Positions 1 through 15,761 of a stretch of 17,008 nucleotides of DNA are shown in pieces (the stretch's first letter is position 1; each line of letters opens with the position of its first letter). Location of the stretch: NCBI GenBank assembly GCA_041288045.1, contig JBGGMM010000245.1:1-17008 (forward strand). The letters run 5' to 3'. Both the position numbers and the translations under genes were made by a program. This stretch comes from Pseudobdellovibrionaceae bacterium. Lineage in GTDB: Bacteria; Bdellovibrionota; Bdellovibrionia; Bdellovibrionales; Bdellovibrionaceae. Under the pieces are notes generated by a model that was not told the origin of the DNA, did no database searches, and worked only from the letters and a program-made list of their open reading frames with translations.

Positions 1-759
1 CATAAAAAAGGCTCTTTCACGGGAGCTGTCGCTGATAAGGCAGGTCTTTTTGAAGTGGCTGACGGCGGGACCTTGTTTCTAGATGAGGTTGGTGAATTGC
101 CGCTGACCATTCAGGTGAAGCTCTTGCGGGCAATTCAGGAAAGAGTGATTCGCCGGGTGGGAGCGACTGATGACATCAAAATCGATGTTCGGATTTGTGC
201 TGCCACCAATCGGGAACTTGAAGAAATGGTCAAAGACGGAAGCTTTCGTCAGGATCTCTTTTATCGTTTGAATGTGATCAACATCAAAACTCCGTCCTTG
301 CGCGATCGTCGTGATGATATTCCTCTTTTGGCCAATCACTTCTTAAAAAAATACAATGACCGCCTGACCAAAACCATTGGTGCCATCAGTGCCGAGGCCA
401 TGGAAATGCTCAAAAAATATGATTATCCAGGAAACGTGCGAGAACTGGAAAACATCATTGAGAGAACGGTGGCGCTGGAAGGCGGAGCGACGATTCTTCC
501 TGAAAGCTTGCCGCCTTTTGTGAACACTCCAACCGGACGAAAGATGGCCTCTTCACATGAAATTGAAATTGGTGAGGATGGCATTGATCTCGATCGGGTT
601 ATGGGACAAATCGAAAAAGAGCTTTTGGTGAAAGCCATTCATGCCACCAATGGTGTGAAGAAAAAAGCTGCCAAGCTTTTGCACATCACTTTCCGCTCGA
701 TGCGCTACCGTGTTGAAAAATACGGTTTGGGTTCAGCGGATGATTTGGATGATGAATAA
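1..759 (+). CDS. pilR: Sigma54-dependent activator, PilR-like (5'-truncated by the window edge; AAA+ and Fis-type HTH)
   Basis: Frame 1 is open from base 1 ([29 protein letters not shown]). It carries the GSFTGA sigma54-contact loop, Walker B (LFLDE), [11 protein letters not shown] and [10 protein letters not shown]. The C-terminal [21 protein letters not shown] matches the PilR-type FRSxRYR signature. Confidence 0.75.
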
Positions 760-2339
760 TCCCGTTTCAGGACAGTGCTGACTTTTTGAATCAGTTTGTC
801 TTTATCCAAGGGCTTTGTCAGAACATCGTTACAACCCGATTTCAGGCATTTTTTCAAATCTTCTGAATTAGAAAATGCAGTCAACGCGAGAATAGGGCTT
901 TGATTTCCCTGGGCTCGGATCTTGGTTGTTGTCTCATAGCCATCCATGCCCGGCATCTGAATGTCCATCAAGACCAAATCAAATTGGCTGGAATTCAAAA
1001 TATCAAGCGCTTTAGATCCATTGGTCACAGTGACCACATCCAAATTCAAAGGGCGCAAATACATTTGCAACAGAGTGAGATTGTCCTTGCAGTCATCAAC
1101 CAGCAAAACCTTCGAAATTGGTTTCATTTCAGAAGGCAGGGGTTCTATTGTTTCAACTGCAATTTGATCACAAGAATTTTCAAGCACTGGCAAGGAGGGA
1201 GCCAAACTATGGTGAAGATGCAAAGTGGCTTCAAACAAACTTCCGACTCCGGGCTCCGAGTGAACCAAGCGCAGATCTCCGTCCATCGCTCGGACGATTT
1301 CCCGAGAGATCACAAGACCTAGGCCGGTTCCGCCATAGTGACGGGAAGTCGAAGAGTCCGCTTGCATAAAAGGTTGAAACAGCCGAGCTGATTGCTCTTT
1401 GGTCATTCCAAGTCCACTGTCTTGAACTCGCAAGGTCAAAAGACTTTGCTGGGAATCCTGTCGTTGAAGGTCGAAACTGAGAGAGACAGTGCCTTTCTCT
1501 GTGAATTTGATAGCGTTTCCTGCCAGATTCAGAAGGACCTGTTTGATTCGACTGGGATCACCAAAAAAAACAGATTCTTGGAAATTGAGCTGGTGAAAAT
1601 CCAATTGAATCCCTTTTTCGGAAGCTTTCAGAGTCAAGGTTTTCTCAACGTCAATGAGAAGCTCCTGCAGATTGAATTCGATTTTTTCAATTGCGATTTT
1701 GTTGGCTTCCAGTTTTGAAAGATCCAAAATATCATCAATCAATCGTTTGAGAAGCTCACCATTTCGTCGAATGGCGGACGAAAAATCAGCCTGCTCCTGA
1801 GGAGTCAGTTCTCCTTGTACCAAAAGTTCTGAAAATCCAAGGACAGCTGAAAGAGGAGTCCTAATCTCGTGAGACATATTGGCAAGAAATCGACTTTTTG
1901 CAATGGTTGCCGCCTCGGCATCTTTTTTGAGCTTTTCCAAAAGGCGTTTTTGCTGATGAAGCTCGACGAACACTCGGACCTTGCTACGGACTGTGTGCGC
2001 GTTCAAAGGCTTGAAAAGAACATCGACGGCTCCCGTTTCGTAGCCTTCAAACAAAGTGGCTGAATCTTGCGCTTGGGCCGTGACGAAAATAATTGGCAGA
2101 TTTTTGTACCTTTGAACTCCACGAATGAGTCGTGCGAGCTCAAATCCGGTCATGACCGGCATCTGGACATCCAAAAGGGCAAGGCCAAAATTCTTTAAAA
2201 CCAAGAGTTCGAGCGCTTCATCGGCATTGGAGGCAGAGTGAACTCGAATGTCCGGCTCTGATAGAAGAGATTTCAAAGCAATGATATTTTCAGGGCGATC
2301 ATCAACAATGAGAATGTCAGTCGGCGTTAAGCTTTCCAT
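705..2339 (-). CDS. Cytoplasmic hybrid histidine kinase (REC-HisKA-HATPase_c-REC)
   Basis: N-terminal REC (ILIVDD...LALLDVQMP...FKP), H-box [17 protein letters not shown]-box [11 protein letters not shown]-boxes DSGLG and YGGTGLGL, and C-terminal REC (LLVDD...LVLMDIQMP...LTKP). No transmembrane segment. RBS AAGGAGGT at 2350-2343 lies inside cheB. Confidence 0.93.
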
Positions 2340-2917
2340 TCTACCTCCTTGCGAATTGAGCTGGCTAAGAAATTTCGGATGTCCTCAAGCTTGAGAATAA
2401 AATCAGGGCGAAACAACTGGAGAGCCGAAGCTGGCATGGCTGAAGCGGCGGCTTCCATCGGATCTTGAACGACAGTTCGGCCCCCGTTTTTATGAATGGC
2501 CAAGAGGCCAGATGCTCCGTCTTCATTGGCACCCGTTAAGAGAATTCCAGTGAGATTTTTCTGAAAAACCAATGAGGCAGATTCAAAAAGCACATCGATC
2601 GAAGGCCTGGAATAATGCACGGGTTCTTCTTGTGAAAGAGAGAAAGTCTGATTTTCTTCGATCAGCAAATGGTAGCCCGCTGGCGCAAAGTAAATCGTTT
2701 GGCTTTCAATCTGCATTTTATCCTGAGCTTCCTGGCAGCGAATTCCAGACCCTGGCTGGAGAAGCGCAGAAAACTGCACGTCGGAATGCTCTGGTAAATG
2801 TAAGACTACCACAATCGGAGTCGGCAGTCGGATCGGAAAGGAATTGAGTATTTTTTGAATTGCGGCGACCCCACCGGCAGAAGCGCCGATGACGGTCAAA
2901 GACTCACCGTTTTTCAC
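2327..2917 (-). CDS. cheB: Stand-alone CheB-type protein-glutamate methylesterase (no REC domain)
   Basis: Catalytic triad motifs GASAGG (Ser), VLHLP (His) and LTGANEDGA (Asp), plus RPSIDVLFES. It is 196 aa, catalytic domain only. The GTG start overlaps the cheR stop (GTGA at 2917-2914). Confidence 0.92.
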   Translation of the reverse strand: MKNGESLTVIGASAGGVAAIQKILNSFPIRLPTPIVVVLHLPEHSDVQFSALLQPGSGIRCQEAQDKMQIESQTIYFAPAGYHLLIEENQTFSLSQEEPVHYSRPSIDVLFESASLVFQKNLTGILLTGANEDGASGLLAIHKNGGRTVVQDPMEAAASAMPASALQLFRPDFILKLEDIRNFLASSIRKEVEWKA

Positions 2918-3780
2918 GAGGGCCTCCGTTTCGAATTTTCAAATAGAGACTCACCACCCAATTCAAATGTCGGTTTCTTTTGGTAACAGTGTTGTTTTTC
3001 ATCCAGAACAGAAAAATGCTGATAGGACTGGGAAAATCTCAGATTCTCTTTGCTGCCGATCCCCAGAAAACCACGTTCGATCAGAGATTCCTGGAACAGA
3101 TGAAAAACCCTGTTTTGCAGGTTCTGATCAAAATAAATCAAAACATTGCGGCAGATGATCAGGTGGAACTCGGCAAATGGAGCGTCAGTGGCCAAATTGT
3201 GTTCAGAAAAAACCACATTGTCGCAGAGGCTAGAGTCAAAAATCGCCGAGCCATAATTGGATGTATAATAGTCAGATGGCGGATTTTTTCCACCGCTTTG
3301 AAGATACTGTCGAGTGAAAGACTGCACGGCTCGGTTGTCGAAAATTCCGTCCCGGGCTTTTTGCAAAGAGGCAGGATTGATATCCGTTGCGAAAATTGTT
3401 GTTTTCTCAAAAAGACCCGATTCCTTTAGCAGAATAGCAAGACTGTAAAGCTCCTCGCCAGTGCTGCAACCAGCAACCCACATTTGCAAGGAGGGATAGG
3501 TGGCCAGTACCGGAAAAATTTTTTCTCGCAAAGCTTTGAAAAAAAGAGGATCCCTGAAAAATTCTGTCGTGCCAATTGTCATTTGTGAAAGGATTCGGCG
3601 AAAGGCTGTCCGATCCTGCAGAAGGAGCTGCAGAAGCTGCAAGAGGTTTTCACATTTTTCTCTGTCCAAAATGTTGCCCAAGCGTCGATCGAAAGAGGCC
3701 TTTGAGTAGTGACGGAAATCATACCCGTACTTCAAAAAAACCCCTTCAATAAATAGTTGGCGCTCCACTGGATCAATCAT
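2914..3780 (-). CDS. cheR: CheR-type protein-glutamate O-methyltransferase
   Basis: Motifs YGYDFRHY, TEFFRDP, WVAGCSTGEELYS, ATDIN and CRNVLIYFD. Start placed at ATG 3780 (288 aa). GTG 3786, which overlaps the upstream TGA, is an alternative. The track start at 3813 lies inside the upstream gene. Confidence 0.93.
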   Translation of the reverse strand: MIDPVERQLFIEGVFLKYGYDFRHYSKASFDRRLGNILDREKCENLLQLLQLLLQDRTAFRRILSQMTIGTTEFFRDPLFFKALREKIFPVLATYPSLQMWVAGCSTGEELYSLAILLKESGLFEKTTIFATDINPASLQKARDGIFDNRAVQSFTRQYLQSGGKNPPSDYYTSNYGSAIFDSSLCDNVVFSEHNLATDAPFAEFHLIICRNVLIYFDQNLQNRVFHLFQESLIERGFLGIGSKENLRFSQSYQHFSVLDEKQHCYQKKPTFELGGESLFENSKRRPS

Positions 3781-3782
3781 TC

Positions 3783-6700
3783 TCACAAAAAGATCCCTTT
3801 CGGTGTCAGCCAAACCCGCATCACAGAGAGAAGATTTCCGAGATTCAAAGGCTTAGCCAAATAATCATTGGCTCCAGCTTCGATGCATCTTTCCTGATCC
3901 TCTTTCATTGCTTTGGCGGTCAAAGCGATGATTGGCAGATCCCGAAACTGGCTCTGCTGGCGAATGCGCCGAATCGCTTCGAGGCCATCCATTTTGGGCA
4001 TCATCAGATCCATCAAGACTAAATCTGAATCCGGGTGGAGGCTGAGCGATTCAAGAGCTTCAAGTCCGTTTTTGGCAATTCGCACCGCCAGCCCCTTGCT
4101 TTCAAGAGCGCTGGTCAGGGCAAAGACATTTCGGAGATCATCGTCAACTAATAGAACTGTTTTGCCTTCAAAGTTTTTCTCTTGCGATCTTAGGTGCTGC
4201 AGGATGTCCTGCTTTTCCTGCGGCAAAAGGGATTCGACTCGGTGAAGGAAAAGATTCACTTCATCCAAAAGCCTTTCTGGTGAGCGGGCTCCTTTGATGA
4301 TGATGCTTTCTGAGTACTTCCTCAGAGTTTGCTCTTCTGTTCTTGTCAGATCCTTGCCTGTGTAAATCACAATCGGAGGAACCGAAACTGGCAAAGAATT
4401 GATGCGTTCGAGGAACTCAAAACCCGACATATCCGGTAAATTCAAATCCAGAATGATGCAATCCACAGATTGGCTTTCGACTTTCGAAAGGGCGTCCTGA
4501 CCTGTACCTGCGAGCAGAATTTCGGTGTCTTGTCCAGCCACCAGCTGAGCCACGGCTTCTCGTTGCCTTTCATCGTCTTCGATGATCAAAAGATTTTTCA
4601 CTCTTTTCTCAATCATTGCTTCAATACGAGTCAGCGCCGATCGAACCTTATCTAACGTCACCGGCTTGCTGAGATATCCCAGAGCACCCATCCGAAGGGC
4701 ATTGGTCTGATATTCAAGTGCTGAAATCATGTGAACTGGAATGTGCCGAAGCTTTGAGTCCTGTTTAATGGCTTCAAGCAATCCAAGTCCGCTCATCCCT
4801 GGCAACTTGATATCAAGCAGAATGGCCGTGGGACAATGCAATTGCAAAACCTGCAAAGCCACTTCCGACGAATCCGCTTCAATGGCTGAAAAGCCATAGG
4901 ACTCCACGGTTTCAGCCATGGATTTTCGGAAAACCCGATCGTCTTCGACAATCAAAATCGAATTTCGTTCATTCCCCAAATTTTTCAGAGCCGCTTTTGC
5001 GGTTTCTTGAACTTCATGATTTTTTTGCTCAACAAAAGGTTTGGCTGCTGTCTGAGGCCGGCCTGGAAGGACAGTCTGGGCGGGAAGGGCTTCGGATTGG
5101 AAGTGCAAGGGCAGAATCAACGAAAACTCACTCCCCACATTCTCTTGGGATTGCAGTTCAATTTGACCTCCGAGCAGCGAAGCCAGTTCTCGTGAAATTG
5201 TTAGGCCCAGGCCGGTGCCTCCGAATTTTCGGCTGACACTGCCATCGGCCTGTTCAAATGCTTCAAAAATCAAATCTTTCTTTTCCTCTGGAATTCCTGT
5301 TCCTGTGTCTTGAACAGAGATTCGGATTCTTCCTGGGTCGCCAGTTTGCAATCCCGCTTTCAGCCGGACTTGGCCTTTATCCGTGAATTTGATGGCATTT
5401 GAGAGAAAATTTCTCAAAATCTGTTCCAAGCGCATGGGATCTGATTGCAATTGAAAATTTTGAAGTTCGGGCGCGATCTCAATTTGAAGATCGATTTTTT
5501 TGCTGCTCGCTTGAGGTTCAAAAGTATTTTTCAAGCGTTCGAAAAAATGACCCAGGGCAAACTTCTCGATACGCAATTGAAGTTTGCGAGCTTCGATTTT
5601 AGAGAGATCCAAAATATCATTGATGAGATTCAGAAGATCATTGCCAGAATTGTACATGGTTTTGGCAAAATCTTTTTGCTGATCGGTGAGATTTTTTTCT
5701 TTGTTCTCAATCAGCAAAGTCGCCAGAATCAAAAGACTGTTGAGAGGAGTTCTCAGCTCATGCGACATTTTGGCCAGAAAGTCTGATTTGTACTGGCTGA
5801 TCTTTTCCAGATCCTGAGCTTTTGTCTCGAGAGAATTTCGAGATCTTTCCAGTTCTTCATTTTGGCGGTGAACGATTTCTTGCTGAGCTTCCAAAGCGCG
5901 GGCCTGCTGCTCCAATTCTTCGTTGTTGGTGCGAAGTTCTTCTTGCTGGGTCTGCAGTTCTTCGGCTTGTTGCTGCGTTTCTTCCAGCAGCAGTTGGAGG
6001 CGAGACTGATACAATGTCGAATTCAGATTGACTGCCAGAGGTTCGCGAACTTCTTCGAGTAGCTGCAGGTGATTTGGATCCGGCACTTTTAAAAATGCCA
6101 ATTCAATCACGCCGAGAGGCATTTTCTGAAACTGGAGCGGAACAAAAGTTAAAGCCGTGGGCGAGGCAGAAACCAGGCTCGAAGATATTTTCAAAGAATC
6201 AGATGGCAGATCCTGAACCATCCAAATATCGTCTTTTTTGAGAGCTTCGGAAACCAAAGTGCTGTTTTCAATTTGCTCAGGCGCTGAAAGTAATCCTTGG
6301 ACTTCAGGGCCAGCGAATGAAGCTACTCTTTTCAGTCGGCCACTGTCTTTCAAATAGAGATTTCCGGCCAGGGCTCCGCAAGTGTGAGCCAACTGGGTCA
6401 ATGCTCCTTCGCAGGCTTTTTCGAGACTGTTTGTTTTAGCCAAGAAGAGTGAAATTTCATTGGCTTTGGTGTTGAGCCATGCCTGCAAATTTTTATTTTG
6501 AATTTCAATGAGATTTTTTCTTTCATTGCGGATGATCAGCCAATAGGCCAGCAGAATCAAAGTCAAAGTCAGCGCAAAAGAGCCGATCACATTCCATTGA
6601 AAAAGACTGCGGCTTTTTTCTGCGGATTTCGTGCGAGCGGCCAGCAAATCAGTTTCATTGTCGCGAATTTTTTGCAATTGGTTTCTGAGAACCTCCATTC

Positions 6701-7154
6701 GGATGAATCCCATCTCGAAGGCGGCTTTGCGATTTTCGACTGAAAGCCGCCTGTAGTTGGAAAGCTTCTCAAGCGGCTCCATTCGGGCTTTGATGGCCAC
6801 TTCCAGAGATTTGATATTTCTCTGTTGTTCGGGGTTATCGGCCGTGAGTTCTTTCAAGCGTGTCACGTGTTTCCACACGAAGACGCTTTGCTGCTGATAG
6901 GGGACCAGGTAATCCGGTTGTCCCATCAGAACATATCCACGAATCGAGCTTTCGGACTCGGAAATAGAGGAGTGGACAGCAGAAAGCTCCTCAAGCACAT
7001 CATGAGTCTTTCGCACCCAGCCCTCTTGATTGCTGACGTTTTGAAAGTTGTTGTAAAGGTACCAGACATTCAAACCCAAGATGGTGATGAACAAAGCGAG
7101 AAAGAGATGAATCCCCAGGATTTTTGTCTCTGATTTATTAAAAACTGGGTTCAT
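3783..7154 (-). CDS. Membrane hybrid sensor kinase: TM-CHASE3-TM-GAF-coiled coil-HisKA-HATPase_c-REC-REC-REC
   Basis: Two hydrophobic segments flank the CHASE3 motifs (WVRKTHDV...[19 protein letters not shown]...LTADNPEQQ). These are followed by a GAF-like segment (VPL...LGVIELA), H-box [26 protein letters not shown] and FGGTGLGL. Three RECs have an intact acidic pocket, Asp and Lys (LLDIKLP, ILDLNLP, LMDLMMP). The start overlaps the Hpt stop (ATGA). Confidence 0.93.
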
Positions 7155-7459
7155 GATTCATCTCCTAGGAAAGAAGCTGGGCGAGGATGACTGTCCACCC
7201 AGTTGGTGAAATCAACGGCCAAAAAGCGAAGTTGATTGAGATTTTTTTCTTTTGCCGAATTTTCCATTTTTTCGCCAAGACTTGAGAGTTCAGGAAAGCC
7301 GAAGGAAACTCCATTGCCTTTCATTCGATGACCAATGCGGCTGATTTCCTGAAAATCAGAAGTTTTCAACGATTTTAAAAAACTTTTCAGCTCTTCATGC
7401 CGGCGCAAGATGAACTGGTTTTTCAGTTCGTCAGAGAGGAAGGGGGGATTGTTGCTCAT
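7151..7459 (-). CDS. Stand-alone Hpt (histidine phosphotransfer) protein
   Basis: About 102 aa and helical, with the Hpt motif [28 protein letters not shown] 7459 is preceded by AAGGA. The stop overlaps the sensor kinase start. Confidence 0.85.
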
Positions 7460-8843
7460 TTTCAATTTCCTTCAGCTTCCGATAGAGAGTTTTTCGATCC
7501 ATGGCCAGTTCCTTAGCGGTTCGATCCCGCTGACCTTGGTTTTTCTTGAGGACTTCCAGAATGTATTTTTTTGTCAGTGATTCCAATGTCCAGGCGCCAG
7601 CGAGAGCCTCGCTCATGGGTGGCTGAACTGATTTTGCCAAAGCCACTGATTCGTTCGGTAAAGAAGTGTCGCCCAGCTCAATCAGGTCCATGACCTGAAC
7701 TTGCGGTTCTTGAGCTAAAATCACGGAGCGCTCGATGGTGTTTTCAAGTTCCCTGACATTGCCTTTCCAGGGGTGTTTCAAAAGCCATGTAATGGCCTCA
7801 CGAGAAAAACTTCGGGCTGGTGATTCGTTGAGAGTGGCGTATTTTCTGAGGAAGAATTCTGCCAAAGGTAAAATATCTTCCTGCCTTTCACGCAGTGGCG
7901 GCAGGCTCAGTGGGATGACATGCAATCGAAAATAGAGATCCTCGCGGAAGCGGTGGTGAGCGACTTCGGTTTTGAGATCTCGGTGAGTGGCTGAAATGAT
8001 GCGAACATTCAGGTCGCGCTCTTGGTTTTCGCCGACGCGTTTGACTTTCCGTTCTTGAATCACTCGCAACAGTTTCGCTTGTAAAGGCAAACTCATATCG
8101 CCAATTTCGTCCAAGAAAAGAGTTCCGCCTTCCGCTTCTTCAAAGAGTCCGATTTTATGATCGGAGGCGCCGGTGAAGGACCCTTTGGCATGACCAAAGA
8201 GTTCGCTTTCCAAGAGATTTTCAGGAATGGCAGAGCAATTGATGGCAATAAAGGGTCCGTCTTTTCTGGGGCTCATTTGATGAATGGAGCGAGCGAGGAC
8301 TTCTTTGCCAGTGCCGCTTTCCCCCCAGATGGCAATATTGGCTTGGCTTTTGGCCACTCGCCTGGCGAGATCCAAGACTTTTAAAAAGGCCGGGCTTTTG
8401 CCCTTGATCTGTCCAAGGCCTGTGCCTTCTTTCAATTGAATGACGGATTTAAGGACTTGGTTTTCTGATTCCAAACGGTGAAATCGCAAAGCTCTTTCAG
8501 CGGAAATTTGCAATTGCGAATAGTTGAGAGGTTTCACCACATAATCAATGGCTCCGGCAGAGATGGCTTGCATGGCCGTTTCTACATCGCGATCTCCAGT
8601 GATCAAAATGACCGGGATGAGCAATTGGTTTTCCTGCAATTTCTGAATCAATTGAATGCCTGAAATTTTTGGCATTCTCAGATCCACAATCACCAAATCG
8701 GGGGATTCCTTCTTTTTGAGAAGGTCCTTCAAGCTGACTTCGGCGTCTTCGGAAATCATCACTTGGTGATCCTTCTGTCGAAAGAAGGCTGCGGTCATTT
8801 CTGCTAATTCGAGGTCGTCGTCGATAATAAGAATTTTTGCCAT
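7431..8843 (-). CDS. NtrC/AtoC-family sigma54-dependent response regulator (REC-AAA+-Fis HTH)
   Basis: REC (KILIIDDD...LVIVDLRMP...VVKP), Walker A GESGTGKE, ESELFGHAKGSFTGA, Walker [16 protein letters not shown] and HTH TAKELAMDRKTLYRKL. ATG 8843 is preferred over TTG 8873 because the REC domain starts immediately after it. Confidence 0.93.
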   Translation of the reverse strand: MAKILIIDDDLELAEMTAAFFRQKDHQVMISEDAEVSLKDLLKKKESPDLVIVDLRMPKISGIQLIQKLQENQLLIPVILITGDRDVETAMQAISAGAIDYVVKPLNYSQLQISAERALRFHRLESENQVLKSVIQLKEGTGLGQIKGKSPAFLKVLDLARRVAKSQANIAIWGESGTGKEVLARSIHQMSPRKDGPFIAINCSAIPENLLESELFGHAKGSFTGASDHKIGLFEEAEGGTLFLDEIGDMSLPLQAKLLRVIQERKVKRVGENQERDLNVRIISATHRDLKTEVAHHRFREDLYFRLHVIPLSLPPLRERQEDILPLAEFFLRKYATLNESPARSFSREAITWLLKHPWKGNVRELENTIERSVILAQEPQVQVMDLIELGDTSLPNESVALAKSVQPPMSEALAGAWTLESLTKKYILEVLKKNQGQRDRTAKELAMDRKTLYRKLKEIENEQQSPLPL

Positions 8844-8984
8844 AGTGGGGCGCTTTGTATCAGCGCGGGGCAATGGAGATCAAGTCTTCTTGCTTCATCG
8901 GTCAAAATTCCTTTTTTGGGGCATGACTAAATGAATCAAAATCTAAAATTCACCTTCAAATGTAAATTAAGTGGTTTTTAAGGC

Positions 8985-9282: not shown

Positions 9283-9753
9283 ATGATGAAAACCCAATCC
9301 GCATCTGCAAAAGCCAAAAAGCATGTGCTTCTGGTCGACGATGATCTTGAGTTTTCTTCATGGCTTGCTTCATGTTTGGAAGCCCAATTCAATGTCCAAG
9401 TCACACGAGCATCCAGTGGCTACACGGCGATGAATGAGCTTTTGGACCGCTTCTTCAGTCTTGTCATCTTAGACTGGGACTTGGCAGGAATGAGCGGTTT
9501 CCAAGCACTGAAGCAAGTGGACCAAGCCCTGGAGCTTGAAGATCGACTGCCGTTGCGTGAAGTGGAATCGCGAATCCCGGTAGTGGTTCTTTCCGGGCAT
9601 GAGCCCAGCAAGATCAAATCCGCTAAGCGAGAGAAAAAGCATTTCCGGATTCACAATGTTCTTTCAAAACGTCATGGGATGGAGCATTTGTGCGAGGCCA
9701 TCGGCGCCCTGCTCAATCCCGAGCCAAACGAAAATCAAAAAGTCGCAATTTAA
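9283..9753 (+). CDS. Single-domain response regulator (REC, CheY-like)
   Basis: [15 protein letters not shown] (phospho-Asp), VVVLSG and VLSK. No output domain. RBS AGGGAGG precedes the ATG. Confidence 0.85.
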   Translation: MMKTQSASAKAKKHVLLVDDDLEFSSWLASCLEAQFNVQVTRASSGYTAMNELLDRFFSLVILDWDLAGMSGFQALKQVDQALELEDRLPLREVESRIPVVVLSGHEPSKIKSAKREKKHFRIHNVLSKRHGMEHLCEAIGALLNPEPNENQKVAI

Positions 9754-9767
9754 AAAGGAGTTCGCTT

Positions 9768-10055
9768 ATGAAAATGTCACAAGTTCTGATTGGTTTCGCT
9801 TTGACGGCTGGTCTTACATGTTCAGCAGTTGCTTCCGAATCTCTCGGCGAAAAGGGAAGTGCCACAGCCAACGACGTCAAGCGGTCTGCAAAAAAAGGAT
9901 GGAACCGAACCAAAGAAGCATTTTGTGCTGAAGGTGATGTCACTTGCGCCGCTAAAAAAGCAAAAAACAAGGTCGGAGAAGGTGTTGATTACACCAAAGA
10001 CAAGGGTCATGAAGTGAAAGACTCTGTCGACTCTGATGAGAAAGCTCGGGAGTAA
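9768..10055 (+). CDS. Small secreted Lys/Ala/Glu-rich protein (LEA/CsbD-like composition) with a CxxxxxxC pair
   Basis: RBS AAAGGAG (9753-9759) precedes ATG 9768, giving 95 aa. Signal peptide MKMSQVLIGFALTAGLTCSAVA is followed by a highly hydrophilic mature part containing CAEGDVTC. Confidence 0.8.
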   Translation: MKMSQVLIGFALTAGLTCSAVASESLGEKGSATANDVKRSAKKGWNRTKEAFCAEGDVTCAAKKAKNKVGEGVDYTKDKGHEVKDSVDSDEKARE

Positions 10056-10599: not shown

Positions 10600-11544
10600 A
10601 TGAAAACAGTTTTTCTTTTCTCTGTGATTTTATGGAGTCTGAGCAGTGCGGCCGAATCTCCAATTTCATTCAATAAAGAGGGAAATTGCCGAATGGACCT
10701 CGAAGATCCCTATTCGCCGGATGCGCGCATGCCGGGAAACGGCCCCTATGCTGGCCAATGTTTAGACACCCGGGGAGTGCGCGCCATTCAGATTCTTGAT
10801 TCTCAGCTTCTCAACAAATTTCAGACGGCGGCTCGTCCAGGCTCCATCATCGTTGCTAATTTCAAGCACAACCATCAATTTTGGATCGCTGAAATTCCAA
10901 CATCGGAAATCAAAGAAGTTTTCATGCAACAAGAAGTCGGAAAAGAAAATATTCCGATTCACCACCAGGCCCGATTTGTTTTTAACGAGGGAAAAGGAAT
11001 CCGCTTATTCCCGCAAAAGAAATCTCAAGAAGCTCAATTCAAGGAACCAGTTCTGGTCAAAGACTTTGTGGTCACTGCTATTGGCCTTAGGCCCGCGGAA
11101 CTGGCTGGAACTCCGTTTAGCCCCTTGAAAGGTCTCAAAAAATCCTATGGTCAAGGGATTGGTTTTGCTTCCATGGATGATACTTGGAAATACGACACTC
11201 TTCCTTTGGAGCATGATCTGCTTCAGTTTCGCCTGAAAATGACAGACAAACAGAAAGAAAAGCTTGTCAAATTTTACATCAAGCGATCTGACAAAGTTCG
11301 CGAGAGTCTAGAGTATCATTCTGTTTACGAAAATTGTGTCAGTGAGCTTTTCCAAGGGTTTGCCAAAGTGGCAAAAGTGCAAAAACCATTTTCTGGAAAA
11401 TGGACCAACGCTAAAGGCGACACTCAATATGTGCCTTGGAACACTTTGGAAAAGCTGAAGCTTTATAATCTCATCGATGATGAATACGGCAGTCGAATTT
11501 CGAATATCAGTGTCGAGTATAAAGATCGGCAGGCGACCAAGTAG
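10600..11544 (+). CDS. Secreted protein, possibly DUF4105/Lnb_N-like (Cys-His hydrolase or acyltransferase fold)
   Basis: RBS GAGGTG and signal peptide MKTVFLFSVILWSLSSAA. The HHQARFVF and YHSVYENCVSELF segments resemble the His...F and Y-x5-NC motifs of DUF4105. The family call rests on motif recall only. Confidence 0.6.
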   Translation: MKTVFLFSVILWSLSSAAESPISFNKEGNCRMDLEDPYSPDARMPGNGPYAGQCLDTRGVRAIQILDSQLLNKFQTAARPGSIIVANFKHNHQFWIAEIPTSEIKEVFMQQEVGKENIPIHHQARFVFNEGKGIRLFPQKKSQEAQFKEPVLVKDFVVTAIGLRPAELAGTPFSPLKGLKKSYGQGIGFASMDDTWKYDTLPLEHDLLQFRLKMTDKQKEKLVKFYIKRSDKVRESLEYHSVYENCVSELFQGFAKVAKVQKPFSGKWTNAKGDTQYVPWNTLEKLKLYNLIDDEYGSRISNISVEYKDRQATK

Positions 11545-11584: not shown

Positions 11585-11607
11585 CTGTCACGGCAAAGCC
11601 GTGACAG
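11585..11607. terminator. Perfect 10-bp hairpin overlapping the lyase stop codon (possible bidirectional terminator or 3' stabiliser)
   Basis: CTGTCACGGC-AAA-GCCGTGACAG lies between convergent genes. Neither side has a clear U-tract. Confidence 0.45.
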
Positions 11608-14149
11608 TGAAGTTGGAAACCGTATGTGAGCCCGTTGCAGCATAATGAACGACATTGTTCAGCTGAGTCACTGCGGCTTGCTCGGTGCGGAAAGCGAAAT
11701 TATTGGCGAGCAGGACTTCAGTACCGCCTGACGGAGTGACATAGACGCTGTACCTATGAGTTGCTAGATCCACTCGCATGCGAATCGCATAGGCCTTTCC
11801 CGCTATGTAGCGGAGGCTGCTCGAGGCGTTGTAGGCTGAACCATTCCGAGCGTCCATCAAACCCTGAGGGTTGAAGCGGACGACAGCAGCAATTTTAGCA
11901 AAGTTCGAAGCTGCTCCGTAGGAAAGACCAGTCAATGCATCGATGGCAGCTCCATTCGGAGTCATTGTGAATTTGGCTTCGAAAGCTTTGGTTTGAGCCG
12001 TGAAGCTTGTGTTTTTCCAAGTGGTATTCGAAGTGATGCCCGATGAAGGCGGAGTCGTTGTGCCTGTTGAAGTCACTGTCTGAGTGACGCTGCTTCCGGC
12101 CATGCGACCACCTGGCAAAACAAAAGACAGGGTCTTATTGACTGAGCCTGTGAGAATCACACTCACAGTCATAGCCTTACTTTCAGGGCTGGCGACGCTG
12201 ATTTGCATTGGGCTCACGACTTCATTCACGAAAACTGCGACTTTTTGATTCACCTCCAAAGAGAGAGTCGGGTGAATGGTGATTTTCCCTGGTACATAGA
12301 AAATGACACCGGCCGCTTTTAAGGAATCATTGCGAACAGCTTGTCGGCTGGTCGAATTTTCGATCACTCGAACTGAAGTTGAATTGTAGTTTTGCATTGT
12401 CGCAAGTGAGGCTCCTGGAACAATAATGTAATCATAGGAAGCATTGGTTGGTTTCACTCCATGATCCAGCCATAGACTGAAAATCCATTTTGAAATCGAA
12501 GTGGTCGACCCGGCTGAATTGATTTTTCTCCAGGAACCAGTTTGCAGGGCATCTTTGAAATTCACACCTCGAGGATGTGGAAAGACGTAACCGACATTGT
12601 CATGATGAATCCATTTGGGAGAGTTCAACACTCTCTGTCCACTCGTTGCAACAGCGCCTGGATCAGCATCGCTATTGCCGATGGTGACATTGCCTCGTTT
12701 GTAGACTTGATTCAAAGTGGTGTTAATTGTGTAAGCAGAACTGCTGGTGATCCCTGCTCCCAAAGCGACGACTTCATCGCGGAAGAAGAACCAAGCTTTT
12801 TTGCCGGTAACTCCATCCCAGTTCAGTTGAAAACCAGAAGCACCGTACATTCCAGTCGAGACTCCGCCGGCGAAAGTGACAGAGCTCTTTGTGCCCCAAG
12901 TGGGTGGCAAAGGAATCGTTGTCTTATAAGGTGAAGTGACTCCGGGAACTCGAGCGAAATCCCAGACAGGCCAAATATCAGAATATTCAAGACCATCTTT
13001 GTTGATAGTCATCGCTCCTTGGGTCAGGTAGTAGCCCTGCGCATTTTCTCCATTCCCGTATTCGTGGCAATCCACCAAAACCGAGCAGGTCTTCACACTG
13101 ACAAAGTAGCCACCGCGGCGGTGCGCATGGTAATTTGAAAGCCAGAAATTTTTATTCCCGATGAGGGCGGCGTCATTGCCACCTTGAATGTGACTTTTAA
13201 AATTTTGAAATTCTGCCTTTCGTGGAGTTGCGAGGCTGATCATTGCATCTAGAGCTGTGATAAATCCCGGTTTGACAACTTGAGCTTGGGGTCTGGAAAA
13301 GCCTCGACCGGCCGAAGCCATATCCCATTGATTGCGACGAATCATCCACTGTGAGCCATCCAAAAGCAGAGACGAAAAATTATTCACTGTGGTCGAAGTG
13401 AAGGCTATCGAAAGACCCGAAATTTTCTTCATCCAATAGCTAATATCCATGACAAATTCTTGTCCATAGCCTGAATTGTAAAGTTGTCGTCCGTGCTGGT
13501 GAAAGCCGAAATCCTGACGAATTCCCTCTAAATCTGAAAGAGCCACAGTGCCTTGGATCGCGGTAAGAGCTCTTTTGACTTCTGTGAGATTGTGTTTTGC
13601 GCGCAGGATATTGATGTGAATAAAAATCCCGGCAATCCAGACCCGGTTCTGGCCCACGTAGAAAGTTGAGTTGTAATCCGCATTGTTGGAAAGTTCGATT
13701 CCGCTATTGATTTGAGCTGCGGTCAAATCTGGCTCCATCAAAAGCAGAATGCGAGTGATCAGGCGGGGAGCATTGATGATGGTCTGCCACCAATTGGGGT
13801 GAGTCAATCGTTTCTGCAACCAAGAGTCATAGCCCCGAATCACTGCCAATCGAACTGCCGAGTTCTGATAAAGCGAAGTGCCGGGTTTATGATAGGCCAC
13901 AGCCATCGTCCAAACCCGATTGAGGTGTTCAACGGCTGGCCAGAAATTCCAATCTGTTGGAGTGGCATAATCGATATTCGACCAGGAGCCATCAGACAAT
14001 TGACTGGTGAGATAGGTGTTGGCACTGGCGGTAGAGACAGTCGCAATATAATCAGCTTTCATACGAGAGCTGAGTGTGTCGATGTCATCTGCCTGCGCGA
14101 AGGCGAGACCAATAAAAAAACTGATGAGAAAAAGGAGACAAGCTTTCAA
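11588..14149 (-). CDS. Secreted polysaccharide lyase family 8 (chondroitin AC / hyaluronate / xanthan lyase family) with an extra C-terminal beta-sandwich module
   Basis: Signal peptide ending AFA or AQA. PL8 motifs: NWWQ, GQNRVW, FHQHGRQLYNSGYG (catalytic His and Tyr 9 residues apart), GRGFSR, GENAQG, WDFARVPGVT, KKAWFFF, TTLNQ, WIHHDNVGY and LDHGVKP. A Thr/Ser/Pro linker leads to a domain of about 145 aa. TTG start. Confidence 0.92.
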   Translation of the reverse strand: MKACLLFLISFFIGLAFAQADDIDTLSSRMKADYIATVSTASANTYLTSQLSDGSWSNIDYATPTDWNFWPAVEHLNRVWTMAVAYHKPGTSLYQNSAVRLAVIRGYDSWLQKRLTHPNWWQTIINAPRLITRILLLMEPDLTAAQINSGIELSNNADYNSTFYVGQNRVWIAGIFIHINILRAKHNLTEVKRALTAIQGTVALSDLEGIRQDFGFHQHGRQLYNSGYGQEFVMDISYWMKKISGLSIAFTSTTVNNFSSLLLDGSQWMIRRNQWDMASAGRGFSRPQAQVVKPGFITALDAMISLATPRKAEFQNFKSHIQGGNDAALIGNKNFWLSNYHAHRRGGYFVSVKTCSVLVDCHEYGNGENAQGYYLTQGAMTINKDGLEYSDIWPVWDFARVPGVTSPYKTTIPLPPTWGTKSSVTFAGGVSTGMYGASGFQLNWDGVTGKKAWFFFRDEVVALGAGITSSSAYTINTTLNQVYKRGNVTIGNSDADPGAVATSGQRVLNSPKWIHHDNVGYVFPHPRGVNFKDALQTGSWRKINSAGSTTSISKWIFSLWLDHGVKPTNASYDYIIVPGASLATMQNYNSTSVRVIENSTSRQAVRNDSLKAAGVIFYVPGKITIHPTLSLEVNQKVAVFVNEVVSPMQISVASPESKAMTVSVILTGSVNKTLSFVLPGGRMAGSSVTQTVTSTGTTTPPSSGITSNTTWKNTSFTAQTKAFEAKFTMTPNGAAIDALTGLSYGAASNFAKIAAVVRFNPQGLMDARNGSAYNASSSLRYIAGKAYAIRMRVDLATHRYSVYVTPSGGTEVLLANNFAFRTEQAAVTQLNNVVHYAATGSHTVSNFTVTALP

Positions 14150-15431: not shown

Positions 15432-15761
15432 ATGCGTCTTCTATTCATTTTGGCTTCGACAATCTTAGTCCAATCGGCGATGGCTGTACCTCCCCAGGGT
15501 GCAAGAACTCCTAAGGATGGTCTGATTTCAAATACTGATTACCAAGGCTTGGTTGAAGGAATTCAAGACAGTGGTTTAACAGTGGTGGTTCAAGAAATGA
15601 ATCAAATGGATTTGTCCTCTGTGCTTGTCAAGAAGTGCTCTGGCGGAAGTCGCTCTGGAGTGATATTCGCTGTTCACACTGTCGATGCAGCCGGAGATGT
15701 CATTAGAACGAATTATTTTGGCACCACCGAGCTCGCCGAAAACATGAAGCAGTGCCAATAA
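15432..15761 (+). CDS. Small secreted hypothetical protein (109 aa, two Cys)
   Basis: RBS AAAGGA and signal peptide MRLLFILASTILVQSAMA, followed downstream by a terminator-like hairpin. Confidence 0.8.
   Translation: MRLLFILASTILVQSAMAVPPQGARTPKDGLISNTDYQGLVEGIQDSGLTVVVQEMNQMDLSSVLVKKCSGGSRSGVIFAVHTVDAAGDVIRTNYFGTTELAENMKQCQ

Follow-up and report, generated by a model that had tools for sequence, protein, structure and literature searches.

Methylation of a sensor kinase has been studied in one case, the hybrid kinase RsbK of Bacillus cereus, whose mark has no eraser. In the report on this system (Chen et al. 2015, PMC4574943), an in vitro assay with 14C-SAM is described in which RsbM methylates the S-helix of RsbK, and methylation and the REC domain together are stated to repress sigma-B. 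RsbM is described there as an orphan enzyme with no cognate methylesterase, deletion of cheB left sigma-B unaffected (data not shown there), and control of RsbK by demethylation was called unlikely. The same report cites a 2012 paper for 127 RsbK-like kinases in 10 phyla, and its supplement S3 lists Bacillales homologues only. The RsbM result is repeated in the accessible text of PMC12848376 and PMC10950880.

Two related classes, MAC1 and MAC2, have been defined and termed uncharacterised in the portions available of PMC6943060 and bioRxiv 10.1101/2022.05.07.491037 (Wuichet and Zhulin 2010, via these sources); the preprint's label of "experimentally uncharacterised" for MAC proteins appears to overlook RsbK. 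The principle of kinase-helix methylation is already known from RsbK and RsbM, and the class is already predicted as MAC2. The cfcABCDE operon of Pseudomonas putida likewise starts with a CHASE3/GAF hybrid kinase (CfcA, PP_3761), followed by a non-chemotaxis cheR and cheB (CfcB and CfcC) (accessible text of PMC4951495 and PMC6849547). According to PMC4951495, mutating the remaining cfc genes, among them cheR and cheB, left the crinkle phenotype in place (unpublished results there), and the cheR/cheB pair is reported to have no part in chemotaxis. The sections consulted of PMC4951495 and PMC6849547 do not mention methylation of CfcA, and the review PMC8846402 is silent on CfcA. A search covering mostly open literature retrieved no paper on CheB acting on a histidine kinase.

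Here we analyzed an operon in a 17,008-nucleotide stretch of DNA from a Pseudobdellovibrionaceae bacterium (GCA_041288045.1, contig JBGGMM010000245.1), referred to as the window; its source genome (G000) is 83% complete. Like RsbK-RsbM, the operon encodes a CHASE3/GAF kinase with an S-helix, HisKA-HATPase and C-terminal REC domains, with a CheR-type methyltransferase encoded next. Genome G577 has a sigB cluster whose kinase is 896 aa long; the H505 and D827 of this kinase agree with the residue numbers in PMC4574943, so it was taken as an RsbK orthologue. The window kinase aligned with it over 907 positions at 30% identity (E 3e-97), rising to 55% in the last REC domain, and the window CheR was 44% identical to the RsbM orthologue, profile A2 placing both among its high scorers. 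The Glu-Glu (EE) pairs of the orthologue lie 74, 67, 60, 53 and 39 residues before the phospho-accepting His and those of the window kinase 74, 67, 60, 53 and 32 residues before it, so that the ladder keeps the same S-helix register and four offsets are common to both. Unlike RsbK, the window kinase has no HAMP match and carries three REC domains rather than one, and its operon also encodes a REC-kinase and a CheB that has no receiver. It is not a strict RsbK-M-Y sigma-B module: the neighbours encode an Hpt protein, a sigma-54 activator and the REC-kinase, with no RsbY or rsbV-rsbW-sigB.

The MAC2 features found in the window were a coiled-coil kinase, separate CheR and CheB genes, and the absence of CheA, CheW and MCP (in a genome 83% complete); no difference was found from the published description, by which the class was assigned. 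The output of the cfc system is the diguanylate cyclase CfcR (accessible text of PMC4951495), unlike the probable output of the window, and CfcA was likened to the window kinase by description only.

The likeness to chemoreceptor adaptation lies in the same enzyme families and in Glx pairs repeated every heptad along the surface of a coiled coil. Unlike in a chemosensory system, no MCP signalling domain, CheA or CheW was found in the 83% complete G000, the CheB receiver is absent, so that the classical phospho-feedback loop is missing, and most of the window's pairs are without the small-residue consensus of chemoreceptor sites. The operon probably works like RsbK-RsbM and shows the testable features of that type as well as those of MAC2; it belongs neither to the sigma-B modules nor to the chemosensory systems.

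The operon and its Glu-Glu ladder

The features of the operon are listed in Table 1. The kinase consists of a transmembrane segment, CHASE3 (aa 45-176), a second transmembrane segment, GAF (aa 242-376, a call below the Pfam cut-off), a 77-aa coil, HisKA (aa 456-522), HATPase and three REC domains. Its two hydrophobic segments lie near aa 12 and 190, and the phospho-acceptor residues are H465 in HisKA and D781, D903 and D1049 in the REC domains. No NCBIfam model scored above its cut-off for the operon proteins.

Table 1. Coordinates of the operon features in the window
Feature	Position	Strand	Details and basis
NtrC-type sigma-54 activator (REC, AAA+, Fis HTH)	7431..8873	minus	co-oriented, upstream
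Small Hpt protein (H46)	7151..7465	minus	stop overlaps kinase start
Hybrid sensor kinase, membrane	3783..7154	minus	1123 aa; RsbK/CfcA type; ORF and domain search
Glu-Glu ladder, GAF-to-HisKA signalling helix (aa 391-434)	5853..5984	minus	sequence
CheR-family methyltransferase, RsbM/MAC2 type	2914..3813	minus	domain search; motifs
CheB methylesterase, stand-alone, 196 aa	2327..2917	minus	methylesterase domain only, without receiver
REC-HisKA-HATPase-REC kinase, cytoplasmic, operon's last gene	705..2339	minus	domain search

The preliminary description of this DNA had placed EE pairs at relative positions 1, 8, 15, 22 and 43 of the helix between GAF and HisKA, cheR and cheB directly behind the kinase gene, and no MCP, CheA or CheW in the window. 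All three points were borne out. The pairs start at aa 391, 398, 405, 412 and 433 (nt 5984, 5963, 5942, 5921 and 5858) and fall in a single mod-7 class; cheR and cheB directly follow the kinase gene, their ends overlapping; and none of the three chemosensory proteins was encoded among the 14 window ORFs scanned. When the 77-aa linker was shuffled 100,000 times, five EE pairs in a single register appeared in 2 of the 100,000 shuffles, and in 45 of 100,000 when the a/d core was held fixed. The ladder exceeds chance expectation. No DNA-level repeat was seen by eye in the coil region.

With the stripe of leucines (L400, L407, L414 and onward) set as position d, the EE pairs occupy heptad positions b and c on the outer face of the coil, which we take to be the positions of chemoreceptor methylation sites as well. 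The consensus of those sites is Glx-Glx-x-x-Ala-Ser/Thr, and among the window's EE pairs its small residues are present only around 405. In an alignment of 59 cheR-linked kinases, E406 and L407 were invariant and E405 was at least 90% conserved.

The catalytic motifs of CheR are intact (FFRD with R87, GCSTGEE, TD with D144, and CRNVLIYF); the true start of cheR is perhaps about 30 nt inside the listed ORF. The CheB triad S13, H40 and D133 is also present, and was invariant in 7 aligned CheBs. Profile scores separated this CheR type (at least 236 bits) from chemotaxis CheRs (at most 187 bits), one fragment excepted. The Hpt protein is a probable phosphorelay shuttle, and the sigma-54 activator, judged from gene position alone, is the probable transcriptional output of the kinase. 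The downstream REC-kinase was considered as a CheR substrate and ruled out, there being no EE ladder ahead of its H-box; it is retained where cheR and cheB are lost.

Kinases with and without an adjacent cheR

Homologues were collected with a kinase-core profile from which the coil was excluded (13 rows, five of them without an adjacent cheR). It was run on 1136 genome slots in six phyla, the unpublished genome G093 being left out, and 199 genomes matched. Of the 199 genomes, 160 were scored with a second profile built from this CheR type; G000, G001 and G018 were classed from separate searches. The 246 kinase loci were reduced to 223 by removal of 3 in which no H-box was found and 20 that had no GAF right before the linker or were cut; 18 of these 20 came from genomes with this CheR elsewhere and 2 from genomes with other CheRs. 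The GAF domain was located by profile, and the EE register was fixed in advance from the window.

Kinases with an adjacent cheR had a mean of 3.56 in-register EE pairs (n=102). The mean was 0.87 where this CheR was encoded elsewhere in the genome (n=52), 0.48 where the genome had only other CheRs (n=48) and 0.62 where it had no CheR (n=21). Runs of three or more pairs were present in 69/102, 6/52, 0/48 and 0/21 of these groups, respectively, that is, in 0/69 kinases from genomes without this CheR type. Off-register EE pairs were flat across the groups (1.8-2.2), as was glutamate content (18-21%). The in-register excess with an adjacent cheR had the same direction in all six phyla, and in the 46 genomes with both kinds of kinase the cheR-linked one had more pairs in 43, fewer in 2 and the same number in 1. 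Equal conservation of the EE heptads in homologues with and without cheR and cheB, which the preliminary description had named as evidence against its proposal, was not what this comparison gave: homologues lacking this CheR kept the ladder less often.

The association had exceptions in both directions. No two consecutive pairs were found in 9 of the 102 cheR-adjacent kinases, one of which merely neighbours the cheR of another kinase. Two or more consecutive pairs were found in 18 of the 121 non-adjacent kinases, half of which (9) belong to genomes that encode this CheR at another locus, and two consecutive pairs in 9 of the 69 kinases from genomes without this CheR. Four loci with a full ladder and no cheR (L014, L017, L018 and L020) were considered as a refutation and rejected, their genomes holding a close CheR elsewhere (278-316 bits); they came from a first homologue scan, which yielded mainly unrelated hybrid kinases and was not used in the counts.

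Four second kinases of Bacillota (L177-L180, in G228, G637, G609 and G500) carry three or four in-register pairs without an adjacent cheR; their genomes hold this CheR elsewhere, and they are candidate substrates in trans. In a Bdellovibrionota clade (L244, L247, L250, L254 and L327), cheR is kept, the kinases have one or two in-register pairs and the operon CheB is absent; this is possibly a module in decay.

The linker between GAF and HisKA ranged from 35 to more than 112 aa, and 222 of the 223 lengths belonged to one mod-7 class; the helix thus lengthens and shortens by whole heptads, as read from these sequences.

Kinship was taken into account in two ways. In an independent-pair test on supported branches (7 pairs), 3.4 had the same direction and 0.0 the opposite, which was not significant (median P = 0.25). 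When genomes without this CheR served as the reference, clade contrasts over all branches, unsupported ones included, gave 10 up, 0 down and 2 ties; the same contrast on 25 resampled trees gave 10-15 up and 0 down. Against all non-adjacent kinases, 12 contrasts were up, 3 down and 2 tied. The association between ladder and cheR is consistent, yet based on about a dozen events.

One of these events is a joint loss. In G001, G018, G1104, G1090 and G1153:C73, the gene of the next REC-kinase lies directly after the kinase gene, and the linker is 35 aa long, with six heptads missing and zero in-register pairs. These five form one clade, and the co-loss of the coil and cheR/cheB is a single event; G1021, the sister of the clade, retains the 77-aa linker, cheR and cheB. 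Apart from this clade, G992 (L366:6796-7584) has a CheR remnant, possibly a pseudo-enzyme, that lacks FFRD, GCSTGEE and CRNVLIYF; the kinase next to it has no in-register pair.

Predicted complex of CheR with the kinase helix

Two copies of kinase aa 372-523 were modelled with CheR and SAH using our own alignments. The complex scored 0.64 and the best control 0.00; the mark used for reading such scores is reached by 116 of 157 solved pairs and 2 of 215 mismatched pairs, and is a rough guide for a model with its own alignments and a ligand. The prediction runs agreed in at least 89% of contacts, with a partner pLDDT of at least 90. The footprint of the modelled CheR covered one helix, kinase aa 390-412. 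E405 was in contact with CheR I80, T82, N223 and I226, and E406 with S40, R43 and I80; R43, N223 and I226 were invariant in 62 CheR homologues. The model supports binding of CheR on the ladder helix, and the prediction may reflect memory of a related structure. Six solved CheR sequences, judged by name only, included none listed with a substrate helix, which makes the predicted complex useful. On the conservation of the pair, the predicted contacts and the RsbK precedent, E405/E406 is the most likely candidate for the methylation site, with E398/E399 as a possible second.

Other candidate substrates in the source genome

Profile searches of G000 (83% complete) for MCP, CheW and the CheA dimerisation domain gave zero matches; each of these families was matched in 8 of 14 control genomes. 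Eight flagellin matches were present in G000, and 6 of 7 genomes of the same genus have MCPs, carrying 4-21 each. The organism is possibly a swimmer that has lost chemotaxis, as far as an assembly 83% complete can show. Among the operon-bearing genomes 22/80 had no MCP, or 24/86 when six more surveyed genomes are included, and the operon CheR was the sole CheR match in 14 of these 24. The near-complete genomes G009 and G033 retain this CheR and have no MCP. Methylation by this CheR of an MCP encoded elsewhere, which had been named beforehand as a ground for rejecting the kinase as substrate, found no counterpart in G000 or in 24 of 86 operon genomes, in none of which an MCP was detected.

Three consecutive heptad-spaced EE pairs occurred in 3 of the 2925 G000 ORFs of at least 150 aa, and all three are CheR-linked kinases. 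The genome has three CheR domains and three CheB domains, one of each in the window operon, the C113 operon and the C89 fusion. The fusion (G000:C89:1706-5500, plus strand) is a MAC1-like protein of 1264 aa, CheB-CheR-coil-kinase-REC, with seven consecutive EE heptads at aa 701-743. The paralogous operon (G000:C113:15479-23798) encodes CheR, CheB, a REC-kinase and a CHASE3-GAF kinase that has six in-register pairs; a sigma-54 activator-like gene is divergent from it. A further family member (G000:C209:1551-7049, minus strand; 1832 codons, poly-HAMP-like) has a 63-aa linker with zero in-register EE pairs and no adjacent cheR, and serves as a natural negative control.

Proposed mechanism and alternative explanations

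The anatomy of the locus, the intact catalytic motifs, the co-occurrence of ladder and cheR and their co-loss are observed. Reversal by CheB aside, it is highly probable that the kinase is a CheR substrate and the ladder its methylated site. The preliminary description had proposed reversible methylation of the kinase by CheR and CheB; the part that concerns CheR is well supported by the homologue survey, the failure to detect MCPs, the predicted complex and the RsbK precedent, and reversal through CheB is plausible. Its weakest step is chemotaxis-style adaptation or memory, because CheB has no receiver, 22/80 operons lack a CheB gene and RsbK needs no methylesterase to function (accessible text of PMC4574943). 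The best explanation, which we consider reasonably likely, is a module of the RsbK-RsbM (MAC2) type plus a methylesterase, in which methylation of the kinase ladder is set by CheR and CheB.

In such a module, the segment from GAF to HisKA in the kinase dimer would form a continuous two-helix coiled coil with leucines and polar residues in the core and the EE pairs outside, as the sequence pattern suggests. The co-encoded CheR would dock at aa 390-412 and transfer the methyl group of SAM to a ladder glutamate, most likely E405/E406, a step to which conservation, the predicted complex and the RsbK precedent point. Neutralisation of charge may then alter coil packing and damp signalling, the sign of the effect being borrowed from RsbK, in which methylation represses the output. 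The receiver-less CheB would strip the methyl groups, so that the balance of CheR and CheB may act as a slowly adjustable threshold of the phosphorelay, which probably runs via Hpt to the sigma-54 activator and the downstream REC-kinase.

A stronger form of this explanation, with CheB, would be adaptation in a transcriptional phosphorelay, CheR and the receiver-less CheB sensing whether the kinase helix is packed in its on or off form, adding or removing methyl groups to match, and giving integral feedback without phosphorylation of CheB. We regard it as unlikely. If it were true, the number of heptads, with linkers from 35 to more than 112 aa, would set the range of memory, and this flagellated organism, in which three such kinases but no chemoreceptor were detected, would direct all of its protein carboxyl-methylation through kinases.

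A one-way brake as in RsbK is a rather unlikely alternative: methylation by CheR would quiet the kinase, the REC domains would release it, and CheB would be an accessory or a Gln deamidase. It agrees with the RsbK precedent, where no cognate methylesterase exists and cheB deletion had no sigma-B effect (accessible text of PMC4574943), with the window CheB, which has no REC domain, and with the CheB-less operons (RsbK-like ones among them), which still average 2.9 in-register pairs per kinase. However, a distinct operon-type CheB is kept right after or near cheR in 58/80 operons from five phyla, its triad is invariant in the aligned sequences, and kinases of operons with CheB have more in-register pairs, 3.8 vs 2.9 (P = 0.01, kinship ignored).

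Glu at position c was found at 52-57% in every group of kinases, and Glu at position b at 41% with cheR vs 19-23% in the other groups. Part of the EE pattern is therefore structural, since c is equal with or without CheR and only b rises. It is improbable that the whole ladder is structural, forming a charged outer face of the coil while CheR and CheB bind it but leave it unmodified, or have a different protein as their target. Glu is frequent at c and e in all groups, linker lengths change in whole heptads, there are few supported independent contrasts and some CheR-less kinases retain two pairs, all as a structural ladder would have it. Against this, cheR is tracked by a single register, with off-register EE and overall glutamate content flat, a ladder is missing from the downstream kinase, RsbK is methylated (accessible text of PMC4574943), and the CheR motifs are kept: 52/62 homologues match all four strict patterns, most of the remainder differing at one residue.

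That CheR and CheB serve chemoreceptors missing from the incomplete assembly, as the flagellins of a genome 83% complete and the MCPs of its genus might suggest, is very improbable in view of the empty searches of G000, the separate score class of this CheR, its retention in the MCP-less, near-complete G009 and G033, and the report that the P. putida pair plays no role in chemotaxis (accessible text of PMC4951495).

The explanation we prefer, kinase methylation set by both enzymes, would if true mean that reversible methylation tunes a two-component system, and it would bear on the origin of chemotactic adaptation. CheB is present in most operon copies (58/80), and our search found no test of CheB on a kinase. 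The locus is a small, clean system for such work: it has three soluble components and few candidate residues (E405/E406 and E398/E399), and no competing chemoreceptor was detected. Natural negative controls are available in the EE-less poly-HAMP paralogue of G000 and in the relatives that lost the coil and the enzymes together.

Other features of the window

Matches in a promoter scan were at the level of chance (7 vs 7.1 expected), as were those in a terminator scan (14 vs 11.3 expected). The end of a second sigma-54 activator (1-759, plus strand) converges on the operon, the ORF ends overlapping at 705-759, and a stand-alone REC protein (9283-9753, plus strand) is encoded divergently from it. 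Two small ORFs (9690-10055 and 15432-15761, both plus strand) have signal-peptide-like starts and no Pfam match. A probably secreted protein of 314 aa (10600-11544, plus strand) has a partial Lnb_N match, and the ORF at 11588-14149 (minus strand) encodes an 853-aa family 8 polysaccharide lyase with a likely signal peptide and a weak C-terminal carbohydrate-binding match.
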